A DNA stretch of 64,000 nt. Origin: Chloroflexota bacterium. GTDB taxonomy: Bacteria; Chloroflexota; Anaerolineae; DTLA01. Shown one piece after another: positions 1 through 45,831 of the stretch; positions within the stretch are counted from its first letter, which is position 1; every line of letters starts with the position of its first letter. The stretch is from the NCBI GenBank assembly GCA_014874485.1, contig JADBJK010000015.1, positions 55,955 to 119,954 on the forward strand, written 5' to 3'. Below the pieces are notes generated by a model that was not told where the DNA came from, searched no databases, and saw only the letters and a list, made by a program, of their open reading frames with translations. The translations under genes and the position numbers were made by a program.

Positions 1-678
1 GCGGTGAAGAAATTCGCCCAGTACAAGGTGGGGCGGCTGCCGGTGGTGAACGAGCATGGCGACCTGGTCGGCATCCTGACGGGCGGCGACATCACCCGCG
101 GCCTGCTGGAAGCCATCGGGCTGGACTATCACGCGGAGGAGATCAGCCGCTACCGTGCGCGACACATCTTTGAAGACATCGTATCGGACCAGACCGGCCT
201 GATCCTGCGCTACCACATCAAGCCGCGGGACTTCACCGGCGGGGGGAGCGCGTCCAGCAAGATCAAGCGGGCGCTGGATCGGCTGGGGGCCCCGCCGCTG
301 ATTCAGAGGCGGGTCGCCATCGCCGCCTACGAGGCGGAGATGAACCTGATTATCCATACGGACAACGGCGGCGAACTGATCGCGGAAATCCAGCCGGAAG
401 TCATCCGAATCGTCGCGACGGACAACGGCCCGGGCATCGCCGACATAGAGCAGGCCATGCAGCCCGGGTTCTCCACCGCGCCGAACTGGATTCGCGAACT
501 GGGGTTCGGGGCCGGCATGGGACTGGCGAACATCAAGAAATGCTCCGATTCCATGAAATTGGAGTCGCAGGTCGGCGTGGGCACGCGGCTGGAAATCGTC
601 ATCCGAATCCAGCCCGTCATGAGCAGCGGGAACGCCGCGCGACCCTCTGAAGGACAACAGAAACAGGAGACCTCGTGA
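1..678 (+). CDS. CBS-domain / histidine-kinase-like ATPase (HATPase_c, RsbW/anti-sigma-kinase-like) regulatory protein; probably 5'-truncated by the window edge
   Basis: The ORF at 4..678 has a CBS-like N-terminus (GRLPVVNEHGDLVGILTGGDI) followed by HATPase_c G1/G2 boxes (ATDNGPGI, GFGAGMGLANI). Only about one CBS repeat is present, so the gene likely continues upstream of the window. Confidence 0.6.
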   Translation, partial: AVKKFAQYKVGRLPVVNEHGDLVGILTGGDITRGLLEAIGLDYHAEEISRYRARHIFEDIVSDQTGLILRYHIKPRDFTGGGSASSKIKRALDRLGAPPLIQRRVAIAAYEAEMNLIIHTDNGGELIAEIQPEVIRIVATDNGPGIADIEQAMQPGFSTAPNWIRELGFGAGMGLANIKKCSDSMKLESQVGVGTRLEIVIRIQPVMSSGNAARPSEGQQKQETS

Positions 679-1031
679 TCGCACTAGCCGAGATTGTGCA
701 GAAACTCAACCTGGAAGTCGTGGGGAGCGCCGAGAATCTAGACCGCCGCGTCGTCGCCGGTTACGCGTCGGATTTGCTCAGTTGCGCCATGAACCGTGCC
801 AAGAAGGACTACGTCTGGGTTACGCTGCAGTCGCACGCCAACGTGGTCGCGGTGGCGAGCCTGCTGGACCTGGCCGCCGTCATCATCACCGAGGGCAACC
901 GCCCCGACGACGAGACCATCGCCCGCGCGGAGAGCGAAGGCGTCTGCCTGCTGCTCACGCCCAAGACGACGTTCACCGTCGTGGGCGAGTTGACGGCCCT
1001 CGGCGTCCGCGGCGAGCCGGAGCAGCCGTAA
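675..1031 (+). CDS. DRTGG-domain protein
   Basis: The 118-aa product is small and glycine-rich with an ...VVAGYASDLLSCAMN... core typical of DRTGG proteins. Its stop overlaps the upstream HATPase gene (ATGA coupling). Confidence 0.55.
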   Translation: MIALAEIVQKLNLEVVGSAENLDRRVVAGYASDLLSCAMNRAKKDYVWVTLQSHANVVAVASLLDLAAVIITEGNRPDDETIARAESEGVCLLLTPKTTFTVVGELTALGVRGEPEQP

Positions 1032-1048
1032 CGACGGCACGGGAGCCC

Positions 1049-1807
1049 ATGCTGCGGCCGATTCTGGCGGATTTGCACATTCACACAGTGCTCTCGGCGT
1101 GCGCCGAGGTGGAGATGATCCCGCCGCTCATCGTCCGGCGGGCGTGCCGCCTGGGGCTGGGCCTCATCGCGGTAACCGACCACAACGCTTGCGCCAACGC
1201 CGAGGCCGTCATACGCGCAGCCGAAGGGACCGGCCTGGCCGTGCTGCCGGGCATGGAACTCCAGACCCGCGAGGAGGTGCACCTGCTCTGCCTGTTTGAC
1301 ACGGTGGAGCAGAGCCTGGCGTGGCAGGCGGAGGTATGGAGCCTGCTGCCGCCGCTGGAGAACCGCGAGGAGTTCTTCGGCCCCCAGTACGTGGTGGACG
1401 CCGAAGGCCAATGGGTGCGCACCGAGGGGCGGCTCCTGGCGGCATCGGCGGACATCGCTCTGGAGCAGGCCATCGCCAGGGTGCACGCGCTGGGCGGGCT
1501 GGCGATACCGGCGCACGTGGACAGGCCGTCCTTCAGCCTGCTGGCGAACCTGGGCATGGTGCCGGCGAACCTCGGCGCGGACGCGCTGGAGGTTACGGCC
1601 CGGTTCCAGCCGGAGGCAGGTTTCGCCCAGTGGCCGGAGTTGCGCGGGTGGCCGCTTGTCGTGGACGGCGATGCGCATACGTTGAACGACATGCAGAACC
1701 GCACCCTGTTCAAGGTGGCTGCGCCGACCGTTCGCGAACTCTCACTAGCCCTTCGGGGCGCGGAAGGTCGCAAAATCACGGTGGACTGGCACCCAACGAA
1801 ATCGTAG
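1049..1807 (+). CDS. PHP-domain (polymerase/histidinol-phosphatase-like) metal-dependent phosphoesterase
   Basis: The product has an ADLHIHTVLSACA...VTDHN... PHP N-terminal histidine motif. The annotated start is the internal ATG at residue 90 of track ORF 782..1807; the upstream part of that ORF is a low-complexity Arg/Pro-rich artefact overlapping the DRTGG gene. Confidence 0.65.
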   Translation: MLRPILADLHIHTVLSACAEVEMIPPLIVRRACRLGLGLIAVTDHNACANAEAVIRAAEGTGLAVLPGMELQTREEVHLLCLFDTVEQSLAWQAEVWSLLPPLENREEFFGPQYVVDAEGQWVRTEGRLLAASADIALEQAIARVHALGGLAIPAHVDRPSFSLLANLGMVPANLGADALEVTARFQPEAGFAQWPELRGWPLVVDGDAHTLNDMQNRTLFKVAAPTVRELSLALRGAEGRKITVDWHPTKS

Positions 1808-1828: not shown

Positions 1829-2299
1829 ATGAGCCAACCTGAAACCCTGGATCTAGCACCGCTGGACGAAGTCATTGACGAATTCGCCGGGAAGAGTGGG
1901 GCCCTGATCCCAATCCTGCAACGGGCTCAGGACATCTTCGGCTATCTTCCGCCAGAGGTGCTCAAACACATCGCGGAGCGCACCCGCACACCCCTCAGCC
2001 AAGTGTATGGCGTGGTAACGTTCTACGCCCAGTTCTACCTGACGCGCCGCGGGAAGTACATCATCCGCCAGTGCGACGGGACCGCGTGCCACGTGCGCGG
2101 CGCGGCCAAGATCATTGACGCCGTGGAGCGCGAACTGGGCATCCGCGCGGGCGAGACCTCGCCCGACTACAAGTACACCTTTGAAGTCGTCTATTGTCTG
2201 GGTTCCTGCGGATTGTCGCCGGTGGCGGTCATCAACGACAAGGTGCACGGCCGCCTGACGCCGGAGCAGATGATCCGCACCATCCGTGAGTTGAAGTAG
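1829..2299 (+). CDS. hoxE: NAD(P)-linked hydrogenase diaphorase subunit HoxE (NuoE-like, thioredoxin-like [2Fe-2S])
   Basis: The 156-aa product has the NuoE/24-kDa subunit Cys pattern (CDGTACHVRG...CLGSCGLSP). An RBS (GGAGGAAAG) lies upstream. Confidence 0.8.
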   Translation: MSQPETLDLAPLDEVIDEFAGKSGALIPILQRAQDIFGYLPPEVLKHIAERTRTPLSQVYGVVTFYAQFYLTRRGKYIIRQCDGTACHVRGAAKIIDAVERELGIRAGETSPDYKYTFEVVYCLGSCGLSPVAVINDKVHGRLTPEQMIRTIRELK

Positions 2300-2301
2300 G
2301 C

Positions 2302-2856
2302 GTGCGAGAACTCTCCCTTCACGTGCTGGATGTGATGGAGAACGCCATTGAGGCAGGGGCCACGCGCATTGAGGTGCGCATTGACGAGGACCTGGGAGCG
2401 GATCGCTTGACCATAGAGGTTGCCGACAACGGGCGAGGGATGAGCAAGGAGATGACGCAGCGGGTTCTGGACCCCTTCTTCACGACGCGGAAGACGCGCC
2501 ACGTGGGGTTGGGGCTTCCGCTGTTCGCTGCGGCTGCCCGCCGCTGCGATGGCGACCTCACCATTGAGTCGGAGCCGGGAAAGGGGACGCGGGTCAGGGC
2601 CACGTTTCGGCACAGCCATATTGACCGGGCCCCGCTCGGCGATATGCCCTCGGCGCTCATGGCGGTTCTCCTGTCGGGGCGGCCCGTGGACCTGGCCTAC
2701 GTGCACCGTGTTGGCGAGGCCGAGTTCGCCTTTGACTCGGCGGAGGTCCGGCGCGAACTGGGCGAGGTCCCGCTGACGCATCCGGCGGTGCGCCAATGGC
2801 TGTGGCAGACACTGCGCGAAGGGGAGGAGAGCCTTCGCACCAAGCCGTCGGACTGA
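2302..2856 (+). CDS. Small stand-alone histidine-kinase-like ATPase (HATPase_c only)
   Basis: It has a GTG start, an N box (ENAIEAGAT), G1 (DNGRGM), G2 (GLGLPL) and GKGTRV. No sensor or DHp domain is present. Confidence 0.65.
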   Translation: MRELSLHVLDVMENAIEAGATRIEVRIDEDLGADRLTIEVADNGRGMSKEMTQRVLDPFFTTRKTRHVGLGLPLFAAAARRCDGDLTIESEPGKGTRVRATFRHSHIDRAPLGDMPSALMAVLLSGRPVDLAYVHRVGEAEFAFDSAEVRRELGEVPLTHPAVRQWLWQTLREGEESLRTKPSD

Positions 2857-2910: not shown

Positions 2911-3294
2911 ATGCCCAAGATCAAGAGTTTGGAGGAACTCAAGAAGATTCGGGAGGAGGCGCAGAAAGACCTCAGAGTCCGCACCGAAACCGGCACCCGC
3001 ATCATCATCGGCATGGGCACGTGTGGCATTGCCGCCGGCGCGCGCGATGTGATGCACGCCATCCTCAACGAACTGGCGCGCAGGGACATTGAGGCCCATG
3101 TGGAGACGGTGGGATGCATCGGCATGTGCGCGAAGGAGCCCCTGGTGGACATTGAGCAGGCGGGAAAGCCACGGGTTACCTACGCCAACGTAACGCCCGA
3201 CATGGTGCCCCGCCTCATTGAAGAGCACCTGGTGAAGGGCCGCGTCGTCCAGGAGTGGGCGCTGGGCCGACTGGATTCCAAGGGCATCCAGTAG
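2911..3294 (+). CDS. Thioredoxin-like [2Fe-2S] ferredoxin (HndB-like)
   Basis: The 127-aa product has the IGMGTCGIAAGA...GCIGMCAKEP Cys motif. The same fold recurs at the N-terminus of both NuoF-like proteins in this window. Confidence 0.7.
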   Translation: MPKIKSLEELKKIREEAQKDLRVRTETGTRIIIGMGTCGIAAGARDVMHAILNELARRDIEAHVETVGCIGMCAKEPLVDIEQAGKPRVTYANVTPDMVPRLIEEHLVKGRVVQEWALGRLDSKGIQ

Positions 3295-3373: not shown

Positions 3374-6300
3374 ATGGCCGAACCATTCTACAGGGCCAAC
3401 GTGCTGGTATGCGGCGGGACCGGATGCACGGCGTCCGGGTCGGCAGAGGTCATCACGGCCATGGAGGCGGAGATCAAGCGCCGCGGCCTGCAGAACGAGG
3501 TGCGGCTGGTGCAGACCGGCTGCCGCGGCTTCTGCGCCATGGGGCCTGTGATGATCGTTTACCCCGAAGGCATCTTCTACTGCCAGGTGCAGGCCAGCGA
3601 TGTGCCCACCATCGTGGAAGAGACCCTGGTCAAAGGGCGTGTCGTCCAGCGACTCACGTACCAGGAGCCGGAGACGCACAAGGCCCTGCCGTTCTACAAA
3701 GAGATTCCGTTCTACAGCAAGCAGATTCGCATTGCCCTGCGCAACTGCGGCATGATTGACCCCGAGAAGATAGAGGAGTACATCGCGCGGGGCGGCTACG
3801 AGGCGCTATCCAAGGCCCTGACCAGCATGACCCGCGAGGAGGTCATTGAGGAGGTCAAGCGGTCCGGGCTGCGCGGGCGAGGCGGTGCGGGCTTCCTCAC
3901 GGGCGTCAAGTGGGAGTTCACCGCCAAGGCCCCCGGCGACGTGAAGTACGTGGTGTGCAACGCCGACGAGGGCGACCCGGGCGCGTTCATGGACCGCTCC
4001 ATCTTGGAAGGCGACCCCCACAGCGTCATTGAGGGCATGATCATCTGCGGGTACGCCGTGGGCGCGAAAGAGGGGTACATCTACTGCCGCGCCGAGTACC
4101 CGCTGGCCATCAAGCGCCTGAAGACGGCCATCGCCCAGGCCGAGGAGTACGGCCTGCTGGGCGATCACATCATGGGCACCGACTTCAGTTTCCACCTGCA
4201 CATCAAGGAGGGCGCGGGCGCGTTCGTCTGCGGTGAGGAGACCGCGCTCATCGCGTCCATTGAGGGCCGCCGTGGCGAGCCGCGCCCCAGGCCGCCGTTC
4301 CCCGCCGTGTCGGGCCTGTGGGGCAAGCCCACCAACCTGAACAACGTCAAGAGTTACGCCAACATCCCGCAGATCATCGTCAACGGCGCCGAGTGGTTCA
4401 GCAACATCGGCGCGAAGCGAAGCCCGGGCACGGCCATCTTCGCGCTGACCGGCAAGGTGAACAACACCGGCCTGGTGGAAGTGCCCATGGGCATCACCCT
4501 GGGCGAGATCATCTTTGACATCGGCGGCGGCATCCCCAGAGGCAAGAAGTTCAAGGCCGTCCAGACCGGCGGGCCTCTTGGCGGCTGCATCCCGGCCCAG
4601 CACCTCAACGTCAAGGTGGACTTTGACTCGCTCAAGGAAGTGGGCGCGGTCATGGGTTCGGGCGGCATGATCGTCGTGGACGAAGACACCTGCATGGTGG
4701 AGTTCTCCAAGTTCTTCCTGACCTTCGCCCAGGCGGAATCGTGCGGCAAGTGCGTCCCCTGCCGCGTGGGCGGCAAGCGCATGCTGGAGATTCTCACCCG
4801 CATCACCGAGGGCAAGGGCAAACTGGAGGACCTGGACACCATCCGCGAGATCGCCAAGGGCATGGAGACCGGCGCGTTGTGCGCCCTGGGCCAGTTGACG
4901 CCCGGCCCGGTGATGGCCGCCCTGCGCTACTTTGAGGACGAGTTCCGCGCCCACATCCTGGACAAGGAATGCCCGGCCGGAACCTGCAAAGCGCTGGTGC
5001 GGGCGCGCTGCATCAACGCCTGCCCGTCCGAGGTGGACGTGCCGGCCTTCGTGGCGCTGACCGCCCAGGGGCGCTACCAGGAGGCGCTGGACATCCACCG
5101 CGAGCGCAACCCGTTCCCGCTCATCTGCGGGCGCGTGTGCCCGGCCTTCTGCGAGCAGAAGTGCCGCCGCGGCGACGTGGACGAGCCGGTGGCGCTGCGC
5201 CAGGTCAAGCGGTTCATGGCCGACCAGGAGAAGGACCATCCGTGGACGCCACCGAAGAAGGAAGGCCCCAAGGACAAGAAGGTGGCCGTCATCGGCGCGG
5301 GCCCCGCAGGGCTGACCGCGGCGCTGCGCCTGGCCCAGTTGGGCTATCCCGTTACCGTCTTTGAGAAACTGCCGGTTGCGGGCGGCATGATGGCGGTGGG
5401 CATCCCCGAATACCGCCTGCCGCGCGACATCCTGAACATTGAGATTGAGAACATCAAGCGGGCCGGGGTGGAGATTCGCCTGAACCAGGAGATGGGCCGC
5501 GACTTTACCATGGATGACCTGATGAACGGCATGGGCTACAGCGCCGTCGTGCTGGCCATCGGCGCCCACAAGAGCCGCAAACTGGGCATCCCGAACGAGG
5601 ACCTGCCCGGCGTGTACCACGGCGTGAATTTCCTGAAGGACGTGGCCCTGGGCAAGAAGCCGGACCTGAGGGGCAAGCGCGTGGCCGTCGTGGGCGGCGG
5701 CGCGGTTGCCGTGGACGCGGCGCGCACGGCCCTGCGGCTTGGCGCGAGCAAGGTGCATCTCATCTACCGCCGCACGCGGAGCGAGATGCCGGCCTGGGAA
5801 GAGGAAGTCCACGCCGCGGCGCTGGAAGGCATCCAGTTCCACTTCCTGACCAACCCGGTGGAGGTGATCGGAACCGACCACGTAACCGGCGTGAAACTCC
5901 AGGCGCAGCAGTTGGGCGAGTTTGACGCCAGCGGCCGCCGCAAGCCCGTCCCGATTGAGGGGTCCGAGTTCGTGCTGGACGTGGACCTGCTGATACCGGC
6001 CATCGGACAGGCGCTGGCGGTGGAGTGCCTGGACTCCTGCGGCGACATCAGTTTCAACCGCGACGGCACCATCACCGTCGGGCCGGACCTGGCGACGACC
6101 CGCGAGGGCGTCTTCGCGGCGGGCGACGCGGCCCTGGGGCCTGCCACCGTCGTGGAAGCCGTGGCCCAGGGCAACAAGGTGGCCGTGGCCGTGGATGCGT
6201 ACCTCAAGGGCCAGAAGGTGGAGCGGCCCAAGTACGTAACCGGGTACCACGAGGTGCCGCAGGTGTTCAACATGGACGACTACGCCGACGCCAAGCGGCC

Positions 6301-6481
6301 TCAGATGCCCGAATTGCCCGTTGAAGAGCGCATTTGCTGCTTTGACGAAGTGGAACTCGGGTTTGACGAAAAGACCGCCCGCGAAGAGTGCAAGCGTTGC
6401 CTGCGCTGCGACCTGGAATGGGTAGAGACCATGGGCGTGGAAGCGGTTACGCAGGCGGATAAAGACGCGGTCCCGGCATAG
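3374..6481 (+). CDS. hoxF: HoxF-like NAD(P)H-binding diaphorase subunit (NuoF 51-kDa homologue) fused C-terminally to a GltD/NfnB-like FAD-NAD(P)H oxidoreductase domain
   Basis: The 1035-aa product has an N-terminal thioredoxin-like 2Fe-2S domain and a NuoF core (GRGGAGFLTGVKWEF, CGKCVPCR 4Fe-4S). These are followed by a GltD-like 2x[4Fe-4S] region (CINACPSEVDVP...CGRVCPAFCEQKC), a Rossmann FAD/NAD(P) site (VAVIGAGPAGLTAA and VAVVGGGAVAVD) and a C-terminal Cys cluster (CKRCLRCD). The RBS is AAGGAGGAATCC. Confidence 0.8.
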   Translation: MAEPFYRANVLVCGGTGCTASGSAEVITAMEAEIKRRGLQNEVRLVQTGCRGFCAMGPVMIVYPEGIFYCQVQASDVPTIVEETLVKGRVVQRLTYQEPETHKALPFYKEIPFYSKQIRIALRNCGMIDPEKIEEYIARGGYEALSKALTSMTREEVIEEVKRSGLRGRGGAGFLTGVKWEFTAKAPGDVKYVVCNADEGDPGAFMDRSILEGDPHSVIEGMIICGYAVGAKEGYIYCRAEYPLAIKRLKTAIAQAEEYGLLGDHIMGTDFSFHLHIKEGAGAFVCGEETALIASIEGRRGEPRPRPPFPAVSGLWGKPTNLNNVKSYANIPQIIVNGAEWFSNIGAKRSPGTAIFALTGKVNNTGLVEVPMGITLGEIIFDIGGGIPRGKKFKAVQTGGPLGGCIPAQHLNVKVDFDSLKEVGAVMGSGGMIVVDEDTCMVEFSKFFLTFAQAESCGKCVPCRVGGKRMLEILTRITEGKGKLEDLDTIREIAKGMETGALCALGQLTPGPVMAALRYFEDEFRAHILDKECPAGTCKALVRARCINACPSEVDVPAFVALTAQGRYQEALDIHRERNPFPLICGRVCPAFCEQKCRRGDVDEPVALRQVKRFMADQEKDHPWTPPKKEGPKDKKVAVIGAGPAGLTAALRLAQLGYPVTVFEKLPVAGGMMAVGIPEYRLPRDILNIEIENIKRAGVEIRLNQEMGRDFTMDDLMNGMGYSAVVLAIGAHKSRKLGIPNEDLPGVYHGVNFLKDVALGKKPDLRGKRVAVVGGGAVAVDAARTALRLGASKVHLIYRRTRSEMPAWEEEVHAAALEGIQFHFLTNPVEVIGTDHVTGVKLQAQQLGEFDASGRRKPVPIEGSEFVLDVDLLIPAIGQALAVECLDSCGDISFNRDGTITVGPDLATTREGVFAAGDAALGPATVVEAVAQGNKVAVAVDAYLKGQKVERPKYVTGYHEVPQVFNMDDYADAKRPQMPELPVEERICCFDEVELGFDEKTAREECKRCLRCDLEWVETMGVEAVTQADKDAVPA

Positions 6482-6528: not shown

Positions 6529-8244
6529 ATGGCAACCGTCAACATCAAAATCAACGGACAACAGATTCAGGCGCGGGCGGGGGCCACGCTTCTGGAGGCG
6601 GCAAAAGAGGCGGGGATTGACATCCCCACCCTGTGCCACCACCCTGCCCTTGCCAACATCGGCGCGTGCCGCGTTTGCCTGGTGGAAGTGGCGAAGCAGC
6701 GCACACTCCAGCCCGCCTGCACCTTCCCCATCTCCGAGGGCATGGAAGTGGAGACCGAGTCGCCCAAGGCGGTGGAGGCGCGCAAGTTCGTCCTGGAGAT
6801 GCTCTTCTCCGAGCGCAATCACTACTGCATGTACTGCGAGATGAGCGGCGACTGCGAACTCCAGGCGCTGGCGTACCGCTACGGCCTGGACCACTGGACC
6901 TATCCCTCGCCGCACGCCAAGATGCCGGTGGACGGCACGCGCAAGTACTTCATCATGGATCACAACCGCTGCATCCTGTGCCGGCGCTGCATCCGTGCGT
7001 GCTCGGACCTGGTGGCGAACCACACGCTGGGCGTGCGCTTCCGCGGCGCCAAGACCATGATCAGCGCCGACATGGACGTGCCCTTCGGCGACTCCACGTG
7101 CGTGTCGTGCGGCACCTGCCTGCAGGTCTGCCCCACGGGCGCGCTGGTGGACCGCAAGAGCGCTTACATGGGCCGCGAGGTGCACGTAGAGCACACGGCC
7201 AGCGCATGCACGTTCTGCGCCGTGGGGTGCGGGACCAGCGTCGTTACACGCGCCGGGCATGTCCTGCGCGTGGAGGGCGACTGGGACGCACCCAACCAGG
7301 GCGTGCTGTGCGTAGCGGGGCGCTTTGAACCGCTCTACGACCGCCGCGAGCGGATCACCTCGCCCATGTTGCGCAAGGGCAACGGCCTTGTGCCCGTCTC
7401 CTGGGACGAGGCGCTGGGCGCCATCGCCGCCAAGGCGAAGGGCAACAGCGGCAAGAAGGCCGCGGCCTACGTTACCGGCAAGGCTCTCAACGATACGCTG
7501 GGCGAGTTCCTGAGGGTGTTCCAGGGGAAGATGCAGGCCACCGTTGGCACCGTGGAGCCGACGCTGGCGGACCTGGACCTGCCGGTGGGCGGCTCGCTGG
7601 CCGATGTGGACGCGGCCGACTGCATCCTGGTGGCGGGCGGCGATCCGCTGGCCACGCACCGCGTGCTCGGCTACCGCGTCAAGCGCGCCCTGGACAAAGG
7701 CGCTCGGCTGCTGGTGGTTACGGACAAGCCCAACGGCATGCTGCCCCTCGCGCACCGGAAGTTCGGCATGGCCCAGTTGGACGAGGCCGTGAAGGTCTGC
7801 CAGGGCAGCGCCGCGCCGGTGGTCATCTACGGTGGCGACCTGGACAAGGCCAGCGCCCGGAAACTGGCGACGCTGGTGGGCAAGGCCCGCTTCATCCCGC
7901 TGTTCCCCGCCAGCAACGGCTACCGAGCCAGGGAACTGGGTCTGAAGAACGGCTTCAGCGCCAATGGGCTCAAGGTGCTCTACCTGCTGTTGGGCGACGC
8001 AGAACTGCCCGACGAGGCCGTGAAGGAAGCGCGGCGGGCGGCATTCCTCGTCGTCCACGCCGCCTACAAGTCCGCGGCCACCGACGTGGCCGATGTGGTG
8101 CTGCCGGCTCCGCTGTGGTACGAGCAGGAGGGGAGTTTCACCGCCCTGGACGGCAGGAAAGTCGCCGTCAAGCCGGCGGTCGCCGCGCCCGAGGGTATGC
8201 TTGCCGAGGCCGCTGTCCTTGCCCGGCTGGCAGAGCGCCTGTAG
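6529..8244 (+). CDS. hoxU: HoxU-like iron-sulfur diaphorase subunit (NuoG 75-kDa homologue, extended C-terminus)
   Basis: The 571-aa product has an N-terminal 2Fe-2S ferredoxin fold (CHHPALANIGACRVC) and NuoG-type 4Fe-4S motifs (CILCRRCIRAC, CVSCGTCLQVCPTGA). It is longer than canonical HoxU because of a NuoG-like C-terminal domain. Confidence 0.75.
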   Translation: MATVNIKINGQQIQARAGATLLEAAKEAGIDIPTLCHHPALANIGACRVCLVEVAKQRTLQPACTFPISEGMEVETESPKAVEARKFVLEMLFSERNHYCMYCEMSGDCELQALAYRYGLDHWTYPSPHAKMPVDGTRKYFIMDHNRCILCRRCIRACSDLVANHTLGVRFRGAKTMISADMDVPFGDSTCVSCGTCLQVCPTGALVDRKSAYMGREVHVEHTASACTFCAVGCGTSVVTRAGHVLRVEGDWDAPNQGVLCVAGRFEPLYDRRERITSPMLRKGNGLVPVSWDEALGAIAAKAKGNSGKKAAAYVTGKALNDTLGEFLRVFQGKMQATVGTVEPTLADLDLPVGGSLADVDAADCILVAGGDPLATHRVLGYRVKRALDKGARLLVVTDKPNGMLPLAHRKFGMAQLDEAVKVCQGSAAPVVIYGGDLDKASARKLATLVGKARFIPLFPASNGYRARELGLKNGFSANGLKVLYLLLGDAELPDEAVKEARRAAFLVVHAAYKSAATDVADVVLPAPLWYEQEGSFTALDGRKVAVKPAVAAPEGMLAEAAVLARLAERL

Positions 8245-8278: not shown

Positions 8279-8818
8279 ATGGCGAAAGTCAAGGTTGCAA
8301 CAGATTGGCTGGCCGCGTGCGCAGGGTGCCACATGTCCGTGCTGGACATGGACGAGCGGCTCGTCCAACTGCTGGACAAGATAGAACTCACGTCCACGCC
8401 CATCACCGACCTGAAGCACCCACCGAAGGAGGGCGTTACGGTCGGGATTCTCACGGGCGCTATCTCCAACACGACCAACATTGAGGTCGCCAAGCAGATG
8501 CGCGAGCGCTGCCAGATTCTCATCGCGCTGGGCGACTGCGCGGTGTTCGGCGGCATCGTAACCATGCGCAACTTCTTTGACATGAACGAGGCCCTGAAAC
8601 GCGCCTACGTGGAGACCGAAAGCACCGTGGACGGCAAAATCCCCTGCTCGGAGGAACTGGGGAGGCCGGTGCGGGTGTGCGCGGTCAACCAGGTGGTCAA
8701 GGTGGACATCCACATTCCGGGATGCCCGCCGTCGCCGGACGCCATCTACTACGCCCTGTCCGAGTTGTTGGAGGGCCGCATCCCCGTCCTGACCGGCGAC
8801 AACCTGAAGTATGACTGA
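8279..8818 (+). CDS. hoxY: [NiFe] hydrogenase small subunit, NAD-reducing type (HoxY)
   Basis: The 179-aa product carries CAGCHMS, GDCAVFGG and GCPP motifs for the proximal 4Fe-4S cluster. The RBS is AAGGAGGATAA. Confidence 0.85.
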   Translation: MAKVKVATDWLAACAGCHMSVLDMDERLVQLLDKIELTSTPITDLKHPPKEGVTVGILTGAISNTTNIEVAKQMRERCQILIALGDCAVFGGIVTMRNFFDMNEALKRAYVETESTVDGKIPCSEELGRPVRVCAVNQVVKVDIHIPGCPPSPDAIYYALSELLEGRIPVLTGDNLKYD

Positions 8819-8868: not shown

Positions 8869-10290
8869 ATGCAAAAGATCACGATAGAACCCGTAACGCG
8901 AATTGAGGGCCACGCCAAGGTTACCATCCACCTGAACGACGAGGGCAAGGTGGAGCGGGCCTTCTTCCACGTGAACGAGTGGCGTGGGTTTGAGAAGTTC
9001 AGCGAGGGGCGGCCCTTCTTTGAGATGGTTCAGATCACCCCGCGCATCTGCGGCATTTGCCCGGTGAGCCATCACCTGGCGTCGGCCAAGGCGTGCGACC
9101 GCGTCGCGGGGGTCGAACCGCCCAGGACGGCCAAACTCCTGCGCGAACTGATGCACATGGGGCAGTTCATCCAGTCCCACTCCATGCACTTCTTTGAACT
9201 GGCGGGGCCAGACCTGCTGCTGGGGTTTGACGCGGACCCCGCCATCCGCAACGTGGTGGGCATCGTCCAGGCGAACCCCGACCTGGCGCTGAAGGCGGTG
9301 CGCCTGCGCGGGTTCGGCCAGGACATCATCAAGCGCCTGGGCGGCAAGCGCGTGCACCCGGTCTTCGCCGTGCCCGGCGGCGTCAACGCGCCCCTGTCCG
9401 TCAAGGACCGCGACGCCATCCTGAGCCAGGTGGACGAGATGACCGAGGTCATCAAGACCGGCATCGCCATCGGCAAGCAGTGGTACGAGGCCAACATGGA
9501 CCTCGTCAACCAGTTCGCCGTGTTCCCCTCGTCCTACATGGGGCTGGTGGACGAGGAGGGCGGCCTGCAACTGTACGAAGGCAAGGTGCGGCTGGTGGAC
9601 AAGGACGGCCGGAAACTGGAGGAGTTTGACGCCCAGGACTACCTGACGTACATCGGCGAGCACGTGGAAGACTGGTCGTACCTGAAGTTCCCCTTCTACC
9701 GCAAGATGGGCTGGCCCAACGGCACGTACCGCGTTGGCCCGCTGGGGCGGCTGAACGCTGCTACCAAGATCAACACGCCCATGGCCAACGAGGAGTTCAA
9801 GGTCTGGAAGTCCATCAACGGCGGCAAGCCGGTGGAAGGCACCCTGTGGTTCCACTACGCCCGCCTGATAGAGGACCTGTACGCCATGGAGCGCGTCCGC
9901 GAGATTCTGGAGGACCCCGACATCCTGTCCACGGACATCGTCGCGGATTCCACGGGGTTCGTGGGCCAGGGCGTCGGGTGCGTGGAGGCTCCGCGCGGGA
10001 CTCTGTTCCACCACTACCAGACCGACGCCAACGGCATGCTGACCAAGGTCAACCTCATCGTCGCCACAGGCCACAACAACTGGGCGATGAGCAAGTCGGT
10101 GGAGATGGTGGCCAAGGCGTTCGTGGACGGCACCAAGTTGACGGAAGGGATGCTGAACCGCGTGGAGGCGGCCATCCGCGCCCACGACCCGTGCCTGTCG
10201 TGCTCTACCCACGCCGTCGGGGCCATGCCCATCGTGATTGAGATGTACGGCCCGGATGGCGCACTGGTGCACCGCCTGACCCGCGACTAG
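8869..10290 (+). CDS. hoxH: [NiFe] hydrogenase large subunit, NAD-reducing type (HoxH)
   Basis: The N-terminal Ni-binding motifs RIEGH and RICGICPVSH are present. The C-terminal DPCLSCSTH is followed by a 24-aa extension, the substrate for endopeptidase cleavage. Confidence 0.9.
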   Translation: MQKITIEPVTRIEGHAKVTIHLNDEGKVERAFFHVNEWRGFEKFSEGRPFFEMVQITPRICGICPVSHHLASAKACDRVAGVEPPRTAKLLRELMHMGQFIQSHSMHFFELAGPDLLLGFDADPAIRNVVGIVQANPDLALKAVRLRGFGQDIIKRLGGKRVHPVFAVPGGVNAPLSVKDRDAILSQVDEMTEVIKTGIAIGKQWYEANMDLVNQFAVFPSSYMGLVDEEGGLQLYEGKVRLVDKDGRKLEEFDAQDYLTYIGEHVEDWSYLKFPFYRKMGWPNGTYRVGPLGRLNAATKINTPMANEEFKVWKSINGGKPVEGTLWFHYARLIEDLYAMERVREILEDPDILSTDIVADSTGFVGQGVGCVEAPRGTLFHHYQTDANGMLTKVNLIVATGHNNWAMSKSVEMVAKAFVDGTKLTEGMLNRVEAAIRAHDPCLSCSTHAVGAMPIVIEMYGPDGALVHRLTRD

Positions 10291-10317
10291 AACTTTACCA
10301 CAGAGAAAATTGGCTGC

Positions 10318-10469
10318 TGTCATTGCGAGCGAAGCGAAGCAATCTCACGCCCTATCTGTCATGCTGAGCGAAGCGAAGCATCTCGGTTGGCGAGATTCTT
10401 CGCGGCTGGGCCGCTCAGAATGACAATCTACCGGGATTGCTTCGGGCGCTGCGCGCCCTCGCAATGACA
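10318..10469. mobile_element. MITE-like element, copy 1 (152 bp; 12-bp terminal inverted repeats TGTCATTGCGAG / CTCGCAATGACA)
   Basis: The termini are a perfect inverted pair. Inside is a nested inverted pair GTCATGCTGAG...CTCAGAATGAC, and the same architecture recurs at four or more other loci in this window. Confidence 0.7.
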
Positions 10470-10521
10470 AACTATCAAGAATCCCTGTGGCAAAATACGA
10501 GGCGGATAGCCGAGGAATCCC

Positions 10522-10563
10522 GCAGACCTCCGAGGGCCTTCCCGACCTCGGAGGTCTGCTTTT
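10522..10563 (+). terminator. Rho-independent terminator downstream of hoxH
   Basis: A 14-bp perfect stem (GCAGACCTCCGAGG...CCTCGGAGGTCTGC) is followed by a CTTTT tract. Confidence 0.6.
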
Positions 10564-10589
10564 GACGCCCTGGCCCCGTGGGATACAAT
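10562..10589 (+). promoter_or_regulatory. Sigma70-like promoter for the hoxW-hyp operon (TTGACG-N16-TACAAT)
   Basis: The hexamers lie immediately after the terminator T-tract, 58 nt upstream of hoxW. Confidence 0.4.
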
Positions 10590-10646
10590 AGCCAGGACAA
10601 CGCAAAGACGCGCTGAGACGTTCACGGGCGCGCTGGGACTGGACGG

Positions 10647-11132
10647 ATGAGACGGACCCTGGTCATCGGATACGGGAACCCCTACCGCCGCGACGACGGC
10701 GTGGCGTTGCACGTCGCCAACCTCTTGCGGGCGGAGCAGGGGCTGCGACCTCTGGCCCTGGACGAAGACGGCCTGGATGCGTGCGGCCATCCCCTGGACA
10801 CGGTGGTGCTCCACCAGTTGCTGCCCGAAATCGCGCCCATGCTGGCCGACTACGACCTGGTCGTGTTCGTGGATGCCCACACCGGCGTAATACCGGATGA
10901 CGTCCGCGTGCTGCCCGTGCAGGAGGAGTACGGCTTCCAGGCGGTTACCCATCACATGAGCCCGGGCATGATGCTGGCGCTGGCGCGGGCAGCGCGGGGT
11001 CGGGCGCCGGATGCCGCGCTGGTCTCCATTCGGGGCGAGGACTTTGATTTCGGCGAGGGCCTGTCGGCGGGGTGCAAGGCTCGCGCGGATGCGGCCGCCC
11101 GCGCCATCCTGGACATGGCCGGCAGGGAGTAG
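10647..11132 (+). CDS. hoxW: Hydrogenase maturation endopeptidase (HoxW/HycI family)
   Basis: The product has the GYGNPYRRDDGVALHV signature (GxGNxxxxDDGxG) and is 161 aa long. Confidence 0.85.
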   Translation: MRRTLVIGYGNPYRRDDGVALHVANLLRAEQGLRPLALDEDGLDACGHPLDTVVLHQLLPEIAPMLADYDLVVFVDAHTGVIPDDVRVLPVQEEYGFQAVTHHMSPGMMLALARAARGRAPDAALVSIRGEDFDFGEGLSAGCKARADAAARAILDMAGRE

Positions 11133-11138: not shown

Positions 11139-11480
11139 GTGCACGAACTGCCCGTTACCGAGCAAATCCTCAAGGTCGTGCTGGATCACGCGCGCAAGGC
11201 GGAGGCGCACCGCGTCGTGCACGTCAACCTCGTCATCGGCGACCTGACCACGTTCGTGGACGAGAGCATCCAATTCTACTTTGATTTCCTGTCGCGCGGG
11301 ACCGAGGCGGAGGGCGCGACCCTGCACATCCGCCGCATTCCGGCCCGCGTGCGGTGTCATGCCTGCGGCGGCGAGTTCGCGCCCGACGGCGTGGACTGGC
11401 GCTGCCCCCACTGCGGCGGCCTGGGCGGGGAAGTGCTCGCGGGCCGCGAGTCGTACATAGAGAGCATTGAGGTGGAATAG
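11139..11480 (+). CDS. hypA: Hydrogenase nickel insertion protein HypA
   Basis: The N-terminal MHE motif and the Zn site CHACGG...CPHCGG are present; the product is 113 aa. Confidence 0.85.
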   Translation: MHELPVTEQILKVVLDHARKAEAHRVVHVNLVIGDLTTFVDESIQFYFDFLSRGTEAEGATLHIRRIPARVRCHACGGEFAPDGVDWRCPHCGGLGGEVLAGRESYIESIEVE

Positions 11481-11485: not shown

Positions 11486-12151
11486 ATGAAGAAAGTGGAA
11501 GTCGTAACCGACATCATGAGTGCCAACGACCAGATCGCCCAGGAGAACGCCGAAACCCTCCGGGCGCATGGCATCCTCACGGTGAACCTGATGGCATCGC
11601 CCGGGGCCGGCAAGACCAGCCTCATCCTGGAGACCGCGCGGGCGCTTGACGGCCGCCTGCGCCTGGGCGTGATTGAGGGCGACGTGGCCTCGCGCATTGA
11701 CGCGGACAAGGTCGCCGCCGCGGGGATTCCCGTGGTGCAGATCAACACCGGCGGCGCGTGCCACCTGGACGCGCCCATGATCCGCCAGGCGCTCCGCGCG
11801 CTCCCGCTGGACGAGATAGACCTGCTCATCGTGGAAAACGTCGGCAACCTCATCTGCCCGGTGGAGTTTCGCCTGGGCGAGACGCTGCGCGTCATGATCG
11901 CCAGCGTGCCCGAAGGCCACGACAAGCCCTACAAGTACCCGGGCATCTTCACGGCAGTGGAGGCCGTCGTCATCAACAAGATGGATTTGGCCCCCTACGT
12001 GGACTTTGACCTGGGCGCGCTGCACGAGGCCATACGGGGCATGAACCCGCGCGCCGAAATCTTTGAGGTCTCCTGCCGCACGGGCGAAGGCATTGGCCGA
12101 TGGGCCGAATGGCTCTGGGCGCAGTGGCAGGCGTATCGGCCGGCGAAGTAG
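11486..12151 (+). CDS. hypB: Hydrogenase nickel incorporation GTPase HypB
   Basis: The product has a P-loop (ASPGAGKTS) and a CH metal motif (GGACHLD), and is 221 aa long. Confidence 0.85.
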   Translation: MKKVEVVTDIMSANDQIAQENAETLRAHGILTVNLMASPGAGKTSLILETARALDGRLRLGVIEGDVASRIDADKVAAAGIPVVQINTGGACHLDAPMIRQALRALPLDEIDLLIVENVGNLICPVEFRLGETLRVMIASVPEGHDKPYKYPGIFTAVEAVVINKMDLAPYVDFDLGALHEAIRGMNPRAEIFEVSCRTGEGIGRWAEWLWAQWQAYRPAK

Positions 12152-14560: not shown

Positions 14561-15654
14561 AGTTCATAGACGAGTTCCGCGACCCTCGGTTGGCCCGCTC
14601 GCTGGTGGAGCGCATCCGCCAGCGCGCGCGCAAGCCCATGCGCCTGATGGAGTTCTGCGGCGGACACACCCACGCCATCCTGCGATTCGGCATTCGCCAG
14701 GCGCTGCCGCCGACGGTGGAGATGCTGTCGGGGCCCGGGTGCCCGGTGTGCGTTACCGCCGCCGCGGACCTGGACCGGGCCATCGCCATGGCGGGTGTGC
14801 CGGGAGTCATCCTGGCCACCTTCGGCGACATGATCCGCGTGCCGGGGAGCCGCGAGAGCCTGCAGCAGGCCAAAGCGCGGGGCGCGGACATCCGCATCGT
14901 GTACTCGCCGCTGGACGCCGTGCGGCTGGCGGAGCAGAACCCGTCGCGGCCCGTGATCTTCCTGGGCGTGGGGTTTGAGACGACGGCCCCGGGCGTGGCG
15001 GCTTCCGTCCTGGACGCGCACGCGCGCGGGGTTGGCAACTACTACGTACTGTGCCTGCACAAACTCACGCCGCCCGCTACCCGCGCCATCTTGGATTCGG
15101 GCGAGGTCAACCTGTCGGGCGTCCTGGGGCCGGGACACGTTACCACCGTCATCGGGACGAAGGCGTGGGAGTTCCTGCCGCGCGAGTACGGCGTGCCCAT
15201 CGCCATCGCGGGATTTGAGCCGCTGGACATCCTGCGGGGCATCTCCCTGCTGGTGGAGCGGATTGCGGAGGGCGAGGCGCGCGTGGACAATGCCTATTCC
15301 CGCAGCGTGCTCCCGGAAGGGAATCGGGCGGCCCAGGACATGATGGCCCGCGTGTTTGAGGTGGCCGACGCCGAGTGGCGCGGGCTGGGGACGATACCGG
15401 CCAGCGGCCTGTGCATACGGCCGGAGTTCCAGGCCCACGACGCGGCGCGCGCGTTTCCGGTGGACGTGCCGCCGTCGCGGGAACCGCCAGGATGCCGCTG
15501 TGGGGACGTCTTGCGGGGCGTCTTGGCTCCGCCTTCGTGCCCGTTGTTCGGCAGAGCGTGCACGCCGGAGCACCCCGTCGGCCCGTGCATGGTGTCGGCC
15601 GAGGGGGCCTGCGCCGCCTACTATCAGTTTGGAGATGCGGGACATGAAGGATGA
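14557..15654 (+). CDS. hypD: Hydrogenase maturation factor HypD
   Basis: The motifs EFCGGHTHAI and GPGCPVCV are present. The start overlaps the hypF stop (ATGA). Confidence 0.85.
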   Translation: MKFIDEFRDPRLARSLVERIRQRARKPMRLMEFCGGHTHAILRFGIRQALPPTVEMLSGPGCPVCVTAAADLDRAIAMAGVPGVILATFGDMIRVPGSRESLQQAKARGADIRIVYSPLDAVRLAEQNPSRPVIFLGVGFETTAPGVAASVLDAHARGVGNYYVLCLHKLTPPATRAILDSGEVNLSGVLGPGHVTTVIGTKAWEFLPREYGVPIAIAGFEPLDILRGISLLVERIAEGEARVDNAYSRSVLPEGNRAAQDMMARVFEVADAEWRGLGTIPASGLCIRPEFQAHDAARAFPVDVPPSREPPGCRCGDVLRGVLAPPSCPLFGRACTPEHPVGPCMVSAEGACAAYYQFGDAGHEG

Positions 15655-16890: not shown

Positions 16891-17358
16891 TTGAACGACA
16901 AACTCCGTGAAGTCCTGCAAGCGCCGGTAACCGGCAAAGGAGACCTCATCCCGCTGCTCCAAAAGGCTCAGGAGGCCGAGGGATACGTCTCCGAGGAGGC
17001 CATCTACGCCATCGCCGAGAAACTGCGCATTCCCGCCAGCGAGGTGTTCGGCGTGTTGTCCTTCTACGCGCAGTTTCGGCTGCGTCCCATGGGCAAGCAC
17101 AACGTCAAGATATGCCGGGGCACGGCCTGCCACGTGCGCGGCTCGCCCCTTATCGTTACCGCTGTGGAGAGCGAACTGAAACTGGGCGGCGGCGAGGATA
17201 CGACTTCGGATGGCTTGTTCACGGTGGAGAAAATCGCCTGCTTCGGGGCGTGCAGCCTGGCGCCGGTGATGGTGGTGAACGGGCGCACCTACGGGAACCT
17301 GAGTCCGGACAAGGCGCGCCGCCTGATTCGCAAGATCGCGGAGGAAGAACATGTATAG
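16891..17358 (+). CDS. fdsG: NAD-dependent formate dehydrogenase gamma subunit (NuoE-like [2Fe-2S])
   Basis: The 155-aa product has the CRGTACHVRG...CFGACSLAP motif. It is a paralogue of hoxE. Confidence 0.75.
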   Translation: MNDKLREVLQAPVTGKGDLIPLLQKAQEAEGYVSEEAIYAIAEKLRIPASEVFGVLSFYAQFRLRPMGKHNVKICRGTACHVRGSPLIVTAVESELKLGGGEDTTSDGLFTVEKIACFGACSLAPVMVVNGRTYGNLSPDKARRLIRKIAEEEHV

Positions 17359-19210: not shown

Positions 19211-19241
19211 CCACGGTTCTCGGATGGAAGGAGACGCAGAC

Positions 19242-25225: not shown

Positions 25226-25311
25226 GCGGCGCAGAACGGCGCATTTGGCGCGGGCCCGGCCTGCGCGAATCGGCAGGGCGCAAGGGACAGTGCGAGGCGG
25301 CCCCTCGCGAT

Positions 25312-25340
25312 TTGACTGTCCCTCTTCCTGTGGCTATAAT
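25312..25340 (+). promoter_or_regulatory. Promoter TTGACT-N17-TATAAT overlapped by inverted repeat GGGACAGT...ACTGTCCC (25284..25322), a candidate GntR operator
   Basis: The hexamers have 17-nt spacing. An 8-bp inverted repeat with GT...AC character spans the -35. Confidence 0.45.
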
Positions 25341-25370
25341 ATGTCAGACATCAGACAAAGGGGTGTGTGG

Positions 25371-45563: not shown

Positions 45564-45641
<78 letters not shown>

Positions 45642-45831
45642 CGAATAGCGAAAGGCGCTGAACAGGAGTAGTAGGCCATCCCTGCAGAGAGGCGGGCGCT
45701 CGGTGCAAGCCCGCCGACGCGCCGACGGGGAGCGCACAAGGTCGAACTCGCCTGGGAGCCGCGGCGGCGAACGCCAGTAGTCGCCGACGGGTGGCGGACG
45801 TTACCCGCCGTAGAGTGGGCCAGGACAGCAC

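Follow-up and report, generated by a model that had tools for sequence, protein, structure and literature searches.

A HydB subunit with a GltD-type NADPH module at the position of the ferredoxin-binding domain in a predicted Bfu-type [NiFe] hydrogenase of uncultured Anaerolineae

The stretch of DNA analysed here, referred to as the window, comprises 64,000 nucleotides of contig JADBJK010000015.1 (assembly GCA_014874485.1, positions 55,955 to 119,954 of the forward strand) from a Chloroflexota bacterium of the class Anaerolineae, and carries at 3374..6481 (+) an open reading frame (ORF) with an ATG start for a 1035-aa protein, here called the HydB-GltD fusion. Judged by sequence, residues 1-538 of this protein are a complete BfuB core, with an N-terminal [2Fe-2S] domain, an FMN/NADH site, a [4Fe-4S] cluster and the His/Cys 'B2' site, and the remainder is a GltD-type module that replaces the ferredoxin-binding domain of BfuB and is not an addition to a complete subunit. 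The locus as a whole is predicted to encode a cytoplasmic [NiFe] hydrogenase of the Bfu type (NiFe-HydABCSL-like). We propose that this enzyme would catalyse a ferredoxin-independent, reversible reaction, 2 H2 + NAD+ + NADP+ <-> NADH + NADPH + 2 H+, which would probably be obligately coupled (bifurcation or confurcation), and we give this reading a probability of about one half.

The ORF has exactly the position and length given in an earlier note on this DNA, and the description there of a NuoF core followed by about 480 aa of GltD/NfnB-like sequence is borne out by Pfam, PDB matches and an AlphaFold2 (AF2) model. In Pfam, the protein matched the thioredoxin-like [2Fe-2S] family PF01257 (aa 3-83), Complex1_51K, that is, the Nuo51 FMN-binding domain (PF01512, aa 161-332, E 7e-47, 160 bits), NADH_4Fe-4S (PF10589, aa 445-527, E 6e-30, 104 bits), Fer4_20 (PF14691, aa 537-622, E 3e-22) and Pyr_redox_2 (PF07992, aa 635-933, E 3e-39, 136 bits), with a weak match to SLBB (PF10531, aa 356-402) at 24.4 bits, just below the cut-off of 27. 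Residues 5-543 gave a gap-free alignment with HydB of the NiFe-HydABCSL enzyme of Acetomicrobium mobile (A. mobile; 7t2r_B, 870 bits), and the C-terminal ~490 aa matched NfnB of Thermotoga maritima (4ylf_B, E 2e-94), NfnL of Pyrococcus furiosus (5jca_L, E 2e-87) and GltD (6s6s_G, E 2e-66). Among the NCBIfam models, TIGR01959 matched the NuoF-type domain with 501 bits, and PRK12771 and PRK12814 covered aa 512-1012 and aa 536-1018 with 482 and 466 bits, below their curated cut-offs of 516 and 916, respectively. The AF2 model of the fusion had a mean predicted local distance difference test score (pLDDT) of 78 and a predicted template-modelling score (pTM) of 0.64 and was confident over the whole module, with pLDDT values of 82-90 in the junction blocks 531-560 and 87-92 in the blocks 991-1010 of the C-terminal tail. 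When the model was compared with the PDB using Foldseek, the N-terminal half retrieved BfuB chains and the C-terminal half NfnA/StnC modules as well as NfnB/NfnL, on which the module superposed at 2.0-2.2 A root-mean-square deviation (rmsd); no PDB chain spanned both halves, the best query-normalised TM score being 0.46.

Together with an alignment of 58 intact fused proteins, these comparisons define the following elements on the forward strand of the window. The N-terminal thioredoxin-like domain, which carries the [2Fe-2S] cluster called 'B5' in BfuB (ligands C13, C18, C50 and C54), occupies 3380..3658 (aa 3-95), and the NuoF-type FMN/NADH domain with SLBB and the [4Fe-4S] cluster 'B1' (C457, C460, C463 and C503) occupies 3758..4966 (aa 129-531). 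The B2 motif H527...C533-PAGT-C538, to which C440 also belongs, lies at 4952..4987 (aa 527-538) and is the last element shared with ordinary BfuB. It is followed by the GltD-type Fe-S domain at 5009..5239 (aa 546-622; PF14691 and the 4ylf_B alignment), the FAD and NADPH Rossmann folds at 5276..6208 (aa 635-945; PF07992 and motif conservation), and a permuted segment equivalent to NfnB residues 6-43 at 6326..6418 (aa 985-1015), recognised in alignments with 4ylf_B, 9bov_A and 8oh5_C.

The fusion recurs in many genomes. A collection of 5.8 billion proteins, drawing on NCBI, JGI, ENA and Logan assemblies, contained more than 120 clusters of homologues of ~1035 aa with 98-100% coverage and 71-97% identity, and of the 80 best loci in a scan of one genome per GTDB species, at least 58, from independent genomes, encode the fusion in a single unbroken ORF of 1014-1075 aa. 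The linker between C538 and C546 measures 7 residues in 57 of the 58 aligned proteins, the identities of the N-terminal and GltD halves co-vary across genomes (r = 0.88), and the GltD half, with a mean identity of 62%, is under strong constraint. These observations exclude the frameshift or assembly artefact joining two genes that the earlier note had named as a way in which its proposal could fail, and we regard its probability as negligible; the broken ORFs in a few long-read metagenome-assembled genome (MAG) loci (L048, L057 and L071), seemingly sequencing frameshifts in the opposite sense, lend it no true support.

The position of the module within HydB was determined by comparison with unfused relatives. 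The C-terminal ferredoxin-like domain of BfuB, with clusters B3 and B4, has been assigned as the low-potential exit of the characterised Bfu enzymes, and in the structure of Thermococcus sibiricus NfnABC ferredoxin sits between this domain and the C-terminal domain of BfuC (PMC12018979, PMC8880783); Schut et al. 2022 use the ferredoxin-type domain of BfuB, IPR017896, as a family-defining feature (PMC9304861). In some Anaerolineae (loci L076-L084), [NiFe] operons of the same organisation encode an unfused HydB, which shares about 75% identity with the fusion over aa 1-554 and ends in a classical domain with two CxxCxxCxxxCP motifs. The fused and unfused proteins are collinear through H527...C533-PAxx-C538, after which the unfused ones continue into the ferredoxin domain and the fused ones into the GltD Fe-S domain. 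Because the two kinds diverge only after the B2 motif, the alignment argues for replacement of the ferredoxin domain and not for an extension, a point missed by the earlier description of a subunit that simply 'continues past the NuoF core'. No Fer4-type Pfam family matched the fusion protein at E <= 0.01, nor was a CxxCxxCxxxCP motif present, and with Pfam as a proxy for InterPro the C-terminal IPR017896-type domain is absent. The other features of the family were found, namely the Nuo51 FMN domain (IPR011538), SLBB (IPR019554, with the Pfam hit just under its cut-off) and the NuoF [4Fe-4S] domain (IPR019575), and a BfuC with NuoE-type [2Fe-2S] (IPR002023) and a BfuA with [2Fe-2S] and 4Fe-4S domains are encoded alongside. 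By its domain content, the fusion lacks one feature by which the Bfu family is defined and keeps the rest. Because C546, the first Cys past the junction, aligns to C47 of NfnB, a ligand of the distal cluster, and this cluster faces ferredoxin in NfnAB, the module appears to be joined to HydB by its ferredoxin-facing end.

The genes around the fusion were assigned by comparison with structurally known hydrogenases, and all five subunits best match the A. mobile enzyme. HydC/BfuC, a NuoE-like protein of 156 aa (1829..2299 (+), PF01257, 168 bits) with Cys 82, 87, 123 and 127 for the C1 [2Fe-2S] cluster, is kept directly upstream in related loci. HydA/BfuA (571 aa, 6529..8244 (+)) scored 290 bits against 7t2r_A and combines, by its Cys pattern, a NuoG-like [2Fe-2S] and four [4Fe-4S] clusters with a cofactor-less molybdopterin-like domain (Pfam Fer2_4, NADH-G_4Fe-4S_3, Fer4_7 and Molybdop_Fe4S4). 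The [NiFe] small subunit HydS (179 aa, 8279..8818 (+), PF01058, 106 bits) is 59-81% identical in related loci, and the large subunit HydL (473 aa, 8869..10290 (+)) has RICGIC at 59-64, DPCLSC at 440-445 and a cleavable C-terminal tail. HydL scored 598 bits with A. mobile 7t2r_D, 428 with MvhA (group 3c) and 417 with HoxH of the soluble hydrogenase that reduces NAD (SH; 5xf9, group 3d), and reached 465 bits with the NCBIfam VhuA model, of which the cut-off is 800. The same gene order from hydC to hydL was also found in distant genomes.

The earlier note had framed the locus as a classical bidirectional, NAD-linked Hox hydrogenase (HoxEFUYH, group 3d) in which HoxF carries an extra GltD domain. 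In favour of this, the genes are ordered much as in hoxE-F-U-Y-H, partial matches came from the NCBIfam models for HoxE and HoxU, and the Pfam HoxH family matches the large subunit in related loci. However, the HoxE model NF005747 reached 150 bits against a cut-off of 224, and the HoxU model NF005745 reached 250 against 333 while covering only aa 2-212 of the 571-aa subunit, which is a long NuoG/Fdh-like BfuA with a molybdopterin-like domain and not a short HoxU of ~240 aa. The A. mobile chains outscored those of SH 5xf9 for HydA (290 against 132 bits for HoxU) as well as for HydL, HydB reached its 870 bits with the A. mobile chain, and it has the Bfu-specific His/Cys B2 motif and the N-terminal [2Fe-2S] domain. 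The Hox identity was rejected on the PDB scores, the NCBIfam scores and the length of HydA, and we consider it very improbable.

Residue conservation over the 58 intact fused proteins shows which cofactor sites of the BfuB core are kept. The four Cys of the N-terminal [2Fe-2S] cluster are present in 53-58 of them and those of B1 in 57-58. The B2 ligands, a set that includes H525 in the A. mobile numbering and is absent from non-bifurcating homologues (PMC9304861), are retained at C440, H527 and C533 in all 58 proteins and at C538 in 57, so that the His and Cys ligands used to recognise Bfu enzymes are found at four of the five A. mobile positions. Losey et al. 2020 (PMC7311640) listed as signatures of a bifurcating HydB an Ala or Glu and a Met at T. 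maritima positions 232 and 234, a Phe at 367 and a GGPSG motif; the first is found here as GAFMD (A204/M206) in 56/58 and the second as GAGAF (F284) in 58/58. No Phe was present at the position aligned (with the offset of +2 that suits all other residues) to the bifurcator residue 'F182' (PMC9304861) in either the window protein or the A. mobile chain. The bifurcator core thus appears to be kept in sequence, comprising H527 and three Cys of B2, the N-terminal [2Fe-2S] domain, HydC, GAFMD and GAGAF.

In the module, exactly eight Cys are invariant (C546, C550, C585, C589, C593, C597, C1009 and C1012; 58/58). NfnB ligates its distal cluster with C39, C42, C47 and C100 and its proximal cluster with C51, C90, C96 and E117 (PMC7596348). 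By alignment, C1009, C1012, C546 and C597 correspond to the four distal ligands in that order, and C550, C589 and C593 to the three proximal Cys. The tail that carries C1009 and C1012 is the N-terminal segment of NfnB permuted to the C-terminus, as in StnC and NfnA. The tail of the window protein contains five Cys, of which C1009 and C1012 alone are invariant; conservation is lacking at C988 and C989, and position 1006 has a Cys in 38/58. A further Cys cluster at the C-terminus was rejected, as the invariant pair maps to NfnB C39/C42 and completes the GltD clusters. The position of NfnB E117 is taken by K612 (56/58), equivalent to K170 of StnC, which the authors of the Stn study linked to a non-bifurcating, electron-transferring module; because K612 matches StnC K170 and not NfnB E117, the module is predicted to be of this non-bifurcating GltD type. 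The FAD motifs GxGPaGL (GAGPAGL in the window protein), E664, GGMmavGIPeYRLP and VFAaGD and the NADPH motif GGGnvAiDaaR...YRR.r.dMPA are conserved at >=90%, and Y798-R799-R800 (YRR) is present in 57-58/58. As the 2'-phosphate of NADPH is bound by YRR in NfnB, and as YRR goes with NADP(H) specificity in DsrL enzymes (PMC7596348), the second pyridine-nucleotide site is, by its motif, predicted to be specific for NADPH. The two [4Fe-4S] clusters and two Rossmann sites proposed earlier for the same polypeptide are upheld by these residues, and the FAD/NADPH residues, the lack of which would have told against that proposal, are present across the family. The module thus shows the features of the NfnB/GltD family (two [4Fe-4S] clusters, an FAD fold and an NAD(P)H fold with YRR); those of the bifurcating NfnB subunit itself, namely the E117 ligand, an N-terminal CxxC and an NfnA partner, were not found, and Pfam detected no NfnA/PyrK-like gene in the operon.

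In the proposed mechanism, H2 would be oxidised at HydL and its electrons would pass through the clusters of HydS and HydA to B1 and FMN. One electron pair would leave as a hydride to NAD+ at FMN, as in the A. mobile enzyme, and the other would take what is usually the ferredoxin branch (C1 and the B2 region) to the distal GltD cluster, the proximal cluster, FAD and NADP+; the distal-cluster ligand C546 lies 7 residues past the B2 ligand C538. With the physiological couples used in the Bfu literature (NAD about -280 mV and NADP about -380 mV), the computed H2 equilibrium pressure at pH 7 is ~3 Pa for NADH alone, ~7 kPa for NADPH alone and ~140 Pa for the coupled pair. Because of these equilibria, H2 at the levels of anoxic habitats is 'mid-potential' between the NAD and NADP pools, where bifurcation or confurcation pays. 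A coupled enzyme could make NADPH from low H2, and could vent NADH and NADPH as H2 at a far higher H2 pressure than an NADH-only enzyme. The idea of the earlier note that H2 is coupled to both NADH and NADPH, possibly by confurcation, is retained as the most reasonable reading in view of the intact YRR site, and an Nfn-like bifurcating FAD is unlikely, given K612 and the lack of an NfnA-like partner.

Several observations weigh against this coupled reaction. The fifth B2 ligand of A. mobile, C476, corresponds to T478 (nt 4805-4807), at a position that is Thr in 35, Cys in 11, Ser in 10 and Val in 2 of the 58 proteins, which leaves the B2 site with three Cys and one His; since B2 has been modelled as zinc, and is maybe not an Fe-S cluster, in other Bfu enzymes (PMC12018979), the exact path on the ferredoxin-side branch is uncertain. 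The third bifurcator motif reads GGPLG (53/58) and not GGPSG. Both deviations occur also in unfused relatives that keep the ferredoxin domain, nested ones in the case of GGPLG, and were rejected as adaptations to the fusion. The NAD specificity of the FMN site is inferred solely from homology to the A. mobile enzyme, and neither the 80 best GTDB species loci nor the distant clusters include a cultured host. In addition, H2 can reduce NADP+ without coupling at standard conditions, so that at high H2 bifurcation is not thermodynamically required.

This last point leads to an uncoupled, dual-cofactor H2:NAD(P)+ oxidoreductase, in which the FMN (NAD) and FAD (NADP) exits would work independently, maybe with NADPH:NAD+ transhydrogenation along the Fe-S wire. 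Both nucleotide sites are intact, H2 at an E0' of -414 mV reduces either nucleotide, the module is of the non-bifurcating StnC type, and a distant NuoF-GltD protein without an obvious BfuA partner downstream (in locus L085) hints at a self-contained NADH/NADPH wire. On the other hand, the core keeps A204/M206, F284, H527, the N-terminal [2Fe-2S] domain and a separate HydC, all features of bifurcators, the module occupies precisely the gated low-potential branch and not the main chain, and a short circuit between NADH and NADPH would dissipate the disequilibrium that the cell maintains between them. We therefore regard uncoupled exits as unlikely, though deserving consideration. Retention of ferredoxin as a substrate, which would make the enzyme a hub for H2, NAD, NADP and ferredoxin with ferredoxin bound on the GltD Fe-S domain or elsewhere, and the FAD maybe a second Nfn-like bifurcating site, seems distinctly improbable. 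In NfnAB, ferredoxin is reached through the two [4Fe-4S] clusters of NfnB, NfnB-like insertions within HdrA's ferredoxin domain in ANME-1 have been read as a second bifurcation site (PMC9012536), the organism has ferredoxin-type Bfu chemistry in a second cluster whose BfuB has a ferredoxin domain, and a small thioredoxin-like protein is encoded beside hydB. In the fusion, however, the canonical B3/B4 docking domain is wholly absent, together with any CxxCxxCxxxCP motif, the C538-C546 gap is only 7 residues, and the distal, ferredoxin-facing cluster adjoins the HydB core in sequence; the proximal ligand is Lys in place of the Glu with which low potential and bifurcation are associated in NfnB, there is no NfnA-like [2Fe-2S]/FAD partner, and the small thioredoxin-like protein has three Cys only and occurs equally in unfused operons. 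Since the module sits in place of the ferredoxin domain, the coupled NAD/NADP reaction is predicted to have lost ferredoxin as a substrate.

Compared with known systems, the enzyme is closest in its core to NiFe-HydABCSL of A. mobile (NiFe-Bfu; PDB 7t2r/7t30), an electron-bifurcating H2:NAD+/ferredoxin enzyme with the same five subunits in the order HydC-B-A-S-L, with which it shares the FMN/NADH site, B1, the N-terminal [2Fe-2S], four of five B2 ligands and the five HydA clusters. HydB of A. mobile ends in a ~55-aa ferredoxin-like part with two [4Fe-4S] clusters (B3/B4) leading to ferredoxin, in place of which the fusion has the ~490-aa NADPH:FAD:[4Fe-4S]2 module; the A. mobile enzyme also differs in having C476 instead of Thr and a HydA of 692 aa instead of 571. 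The closest relatives of the module itself are in the Stn/NfnABC enzymes of Sporomusa ovata (8oh5, 411 bits), Caldicellulosiruptor (9bov, 400 bits) and T. sibiricus (9n5u, 350 bits), which share the CxxC permuted past the Rossmann domains, the proximal Lys, the YRR motif and the BfuBC core. In Stn/NfnABC, however, the module is inserted in BfuA and brings in mid-potential electrons from NADPH, BfuB still has its ferredoxin domain, and ferredoxin is among the substrates. Here, by contrast, the module is on BfuB and replaces that domain, the substrate on the BfuA side is H2, and no site for ferredoxin is apparent. The combination typical of Stn/Nfn-Bfu enzymes, with GltD in BfuA, a BfuB with ferredoxin domain and no hydrogenase subunits, was not found: HydS and HydL are present, and HydA (6529-8244) has no Pyr_redox or Fer4_20 domain in Pfam.

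The module has the same fold as NfnB (4ylf_B), NfnL (5jca_L) and GltD (2.0-2.6 A rmsd, TM about 0.8 on the target), with which it shares the two [4Fe-4S] clusters, FAD and NADPH binding with YRR. NfnB has an N-terminal CxxC, a Glu-ligated proximal cluster and a bifurcating FAD and needs NfnA; the fusion, in contrast, has the CxxC at the C-terminus (1009-1012), Lys for Glu, the extra invariant C585 and no NfnA. The HdrA-NfnB fusions of ANME-1 (PMC9012536) follow the same evolutionary idea, an NfnB-like module of ~500 aa being placed within the ferredoxin domain of the flavoprotein of another bifurcating family so that the ferredoxin branch is redirected to NADP(H); they differ in the host protein, HdrA with a bifurcating FAD, and in the heterodisulfide chemistry of the partner, and they too are uncharacterised. 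In formate dehydrogenase-type enzymes, GltD-like NADP(H) subunits such as FdhB of Moorella thermoacetica (domains described in PMC5736913) and the NCBIfam families PRK12814/PRK12771 use a GltD-type NADPH module to pass electrons to or from a molybdopterin or Fe-S catalytic subunit, but, unlike the fusion, they lack the NuoF/FMN/NADH module and the Bfu core.

All loci of the genome scan are from MAGs, and the intact fusions come from about nine phyla; by label, the loci belong to Chloroflexota (mostly Anaerolineae), Desulfobacterota/Thermodesulfobacteriota, Acidobacteriota, Planctomycetota, Armatimonadota, Gemmatimonadota and Poribacteria, with further loci in bins labelled as Candidate Phyla Radiation (CPR) and Thermoplasmata. 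Among complete MAG chromosomes, CP059258, CP070697 and CP070815 have the fusion, and OY776562 has the unfused form. In about one third of the fused loci, HydS and HydL are missing and the next gene joins a NuoG-like N-terminus to a molybdopterin oxidoreductase. One of these (L024, 9962-16090) has an in-frame TGA (14420-14422) in the FdhF-type motif 'NNVDHCARL-U-HSS', by which the partner is identified in sequence as the alpha subunit of a selenocysteine formate dehydrogenase (FDH), and hypA/B/F/D genes still come after it. The other FDH-type loci (L012, L013, L015, L020, L023, L028, L037, L038, L040, L041, L047, L049, L051, L056, L059, L061-L063 and L077) were classed by their tblastn pattern, the selenocysteine codon having been confirmed in L024. 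In L068-L070, a NuoF-GltD protein 48% identical to that of the window belongs to a different [NiFe] operon with a 510-aa small subunit that has extra 4Fe-4S domains, a NuoE-like protein, NuoF-GltD, a short HoxU-like protein and a large subunit, and a divergent conventional NiFe-HydABCSL operon with its own unfused HydB stands opposite (L069, 7779-14984 and 1236-7366). These three very similar loci come from 'Nealsonbacteria' (CPR) and 'Thermoplasmata' bins of one study, which raises the question of mis-binning.

About twelve additional fused clusters, all metagenomic and 36-51% identical, came from an exhaustive search of 50%-identity representatives. Among the distant proteins, the one in L085 (312-3482, about 40% identity) has no Bfu partner genes downstream, and its contig is cut just upstream; another in L086 (5183-11117, about 40%) is preceded by a molybdopterin oxidoreductase of 705 aa and a poly-ferredoxin of 216 aa, and it is without the N-terminal [2Fe-2S] domain. 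In a rough neighbour-joining (NJ) tree of the N-terminal halves, of which the deep branches are unreliable, one unfused subclade was nested in the main fused clade and the other fused lineages were scattered, with ~8 parsimony changes between the fused and unfused states. These changes do not support a single origin of the fusion, and no firm conclusion beyond recurrent swapping is drawn from the tree. Taken together, the gene contexts indicate that the HydB-GltD fusion is, by sequence, a reusable module that pairs with [NiFe] or formate dehydrogenase partners. The arrangement is unusual for a [NiFe] enzyme, as had been supposed, in that no solved or characterised one so arranged was found, and the fusion is not rare, being present in many uncultured lineages and also with formate dehydrogenases.

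In searches of open-access papers and preprints, no description of a NuoF/HydB-GltD fusion was found, and the related systems found there are limited to Stn/NfnABC, HdrA-NfnB and FdhB. The parts, namely the NiFe-HydABCSL/Bfu core and a StnC-type GltD, are known; what differs is the placement of the module on BfuB, where it replaces the ferredoxin domain. The Bfu family has been defined by its BfuBC core with 'absolutely conserved' cofactors and as always using NAD(H) and ferredoxin, and the fused clade breaks this rule at the ferredoxin site. We tentatively suggest that it may form an unrecognised functional class within the Bfu family. In such enzymes, NADP(H) and not ferredoxin would stand at the end of the gated low-potential branch, and H2, or formate in the loci with selenocysteine FdhA, would be the third substrate. 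If so, the threshold for H2 or formate would lie near 100-150 Pa-equivalent, and abundant uncultured Anaerolineae, Desulfobacterota and other anaerobes would have a direct route from H2 to NADPH. Replacement of ferredoxin by NADP(H) would widen the substrate range of flavin/Fe-S bifurcation, and anaerobes could balance NADH, NADPH and H2 or formate against each other with no need for ferredoxin. The H2 thresholds expected for Anaerolineae and Desulfobacterota, two groups that abound in digesters, sediments and groundwater, would also change. The ~75% identical fused and unfused enzymes of the same class, and the presence of both BfuB types in one window, constitute a natural domain-swap experiment on the low-potential branch, and the joint regeneration of NADH and NADPH by one hydrogenase would be of interest for biocatalysis.

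The fusion genes are easily overlooked. Members of the 90% cluster of the window protein are annotated as 'NuoF' or 'hypothetical protein', 'FAD-dependent oxidoreductase' being another current annotation, and searches by Bfu domain architecture would miss them. Because the published Bfu survey required IPR017896 and excluded metagenomic data (PMC9304861), it would have missed the fused clade, and hydrogenase surveys probably misclassify the fused enzymes as Hox-like or ferredoxin-dependent.

Two further small genes lie between hydC and the fusion gene. The first encodes a HATPase_c protein (184 aa, 2302..2856 (+), PF02518, 76 bits), which about two of every three related loci have, whether fused or unfused, and which is an optional, probably regulatory member of the operon. 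The second encodes the small thioredoxin-like protein (127 aa, 2911..3294 (+), PF01257, 27 bits), kept beside both fused and unfused HydB genes, in which Cys 38, 69 and 73 are one too few for a normal [2Fe-2S] site. A similar pattern, 'GLGTCG...VGCIGMC', occurs at the N-terminus of the conventional BfuB paralogue of the window. As candidates for a fusion-specific partner both proteins were rejected, since they occur equally in unfused operons and the HATPase_c gene is often absent. The region upstream of hydC has a gene for a CBS/HATPase_c protein that the window edge truncates (4-678 (+)) and one for a PHP-domain protein (782-1807 (+)). Many related loci also have this PHP gene ahead of hydC, with DRTGG and CBS-HATPase genes farther upstream in L001 and L002, which suggests a conserved regulatory cassette.

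Downstream of hydL, the gene for a hydrogenase maturation endopeptidase (10647..11132 (+), TIGR00072, 68 bits) is followed on the same strand by hypA (11139-11480), hypB (11486-12151), hypF (12173-14560), hypD (14557-15654) and hypE, which ends at 16651 and of which the start is uncertain. No convincing ORF was found in the 356 nt between hydL and the protease gene (10291-10646). A weak terminator-like hairpin at 10538-10556, followed by a sigma-70-like promoter match at 10562-10589 (10/12), fits separate transcription of the structural and maturation genes, both signals being consensus matches only.

A second Bfu cluster (16891-21953 (+)) begins directly after the hyp genes, with a BfuC-like gene (16891-17358 (+)), a conventional BfuB of 619 aa (17351-19210 (+)) that has a C-terminal 2x[4Fe-4S] ferredoxin domain at the position taken by the GltD module in the fusion and is 58% identical to the N-terminal half of the fusion, and an FdhA-type subunit with an uncertain start near 19137-19220. 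An in-frame TGA (20292-20294) in the motif 'HNVDHCARL-U-HSSTV' of the last likely encodes selenocysteine. Two types of BfuB thus coexist in the window and are presumably functionally distinct. Farther downstream, tandem paralogous genes of the aspartate/ornithine carbamoyltransferase family (26144-27214 and 27330-28373 (+)) and an amino-acid-kinase-family gene, possibly for carbamate kinase (28408-29352 (+)), are preceded by a GntR/UTRA regulator (25245-26111), and the arrangement resembles an arginine- or agmatine-deiminase-type catabolic cluster. Two tandem tRNA-Ala genes with anticodons CGC and GGC, about 190 nt apart (45564-45905 (+)), lie upstream of leuS (46467-49250).

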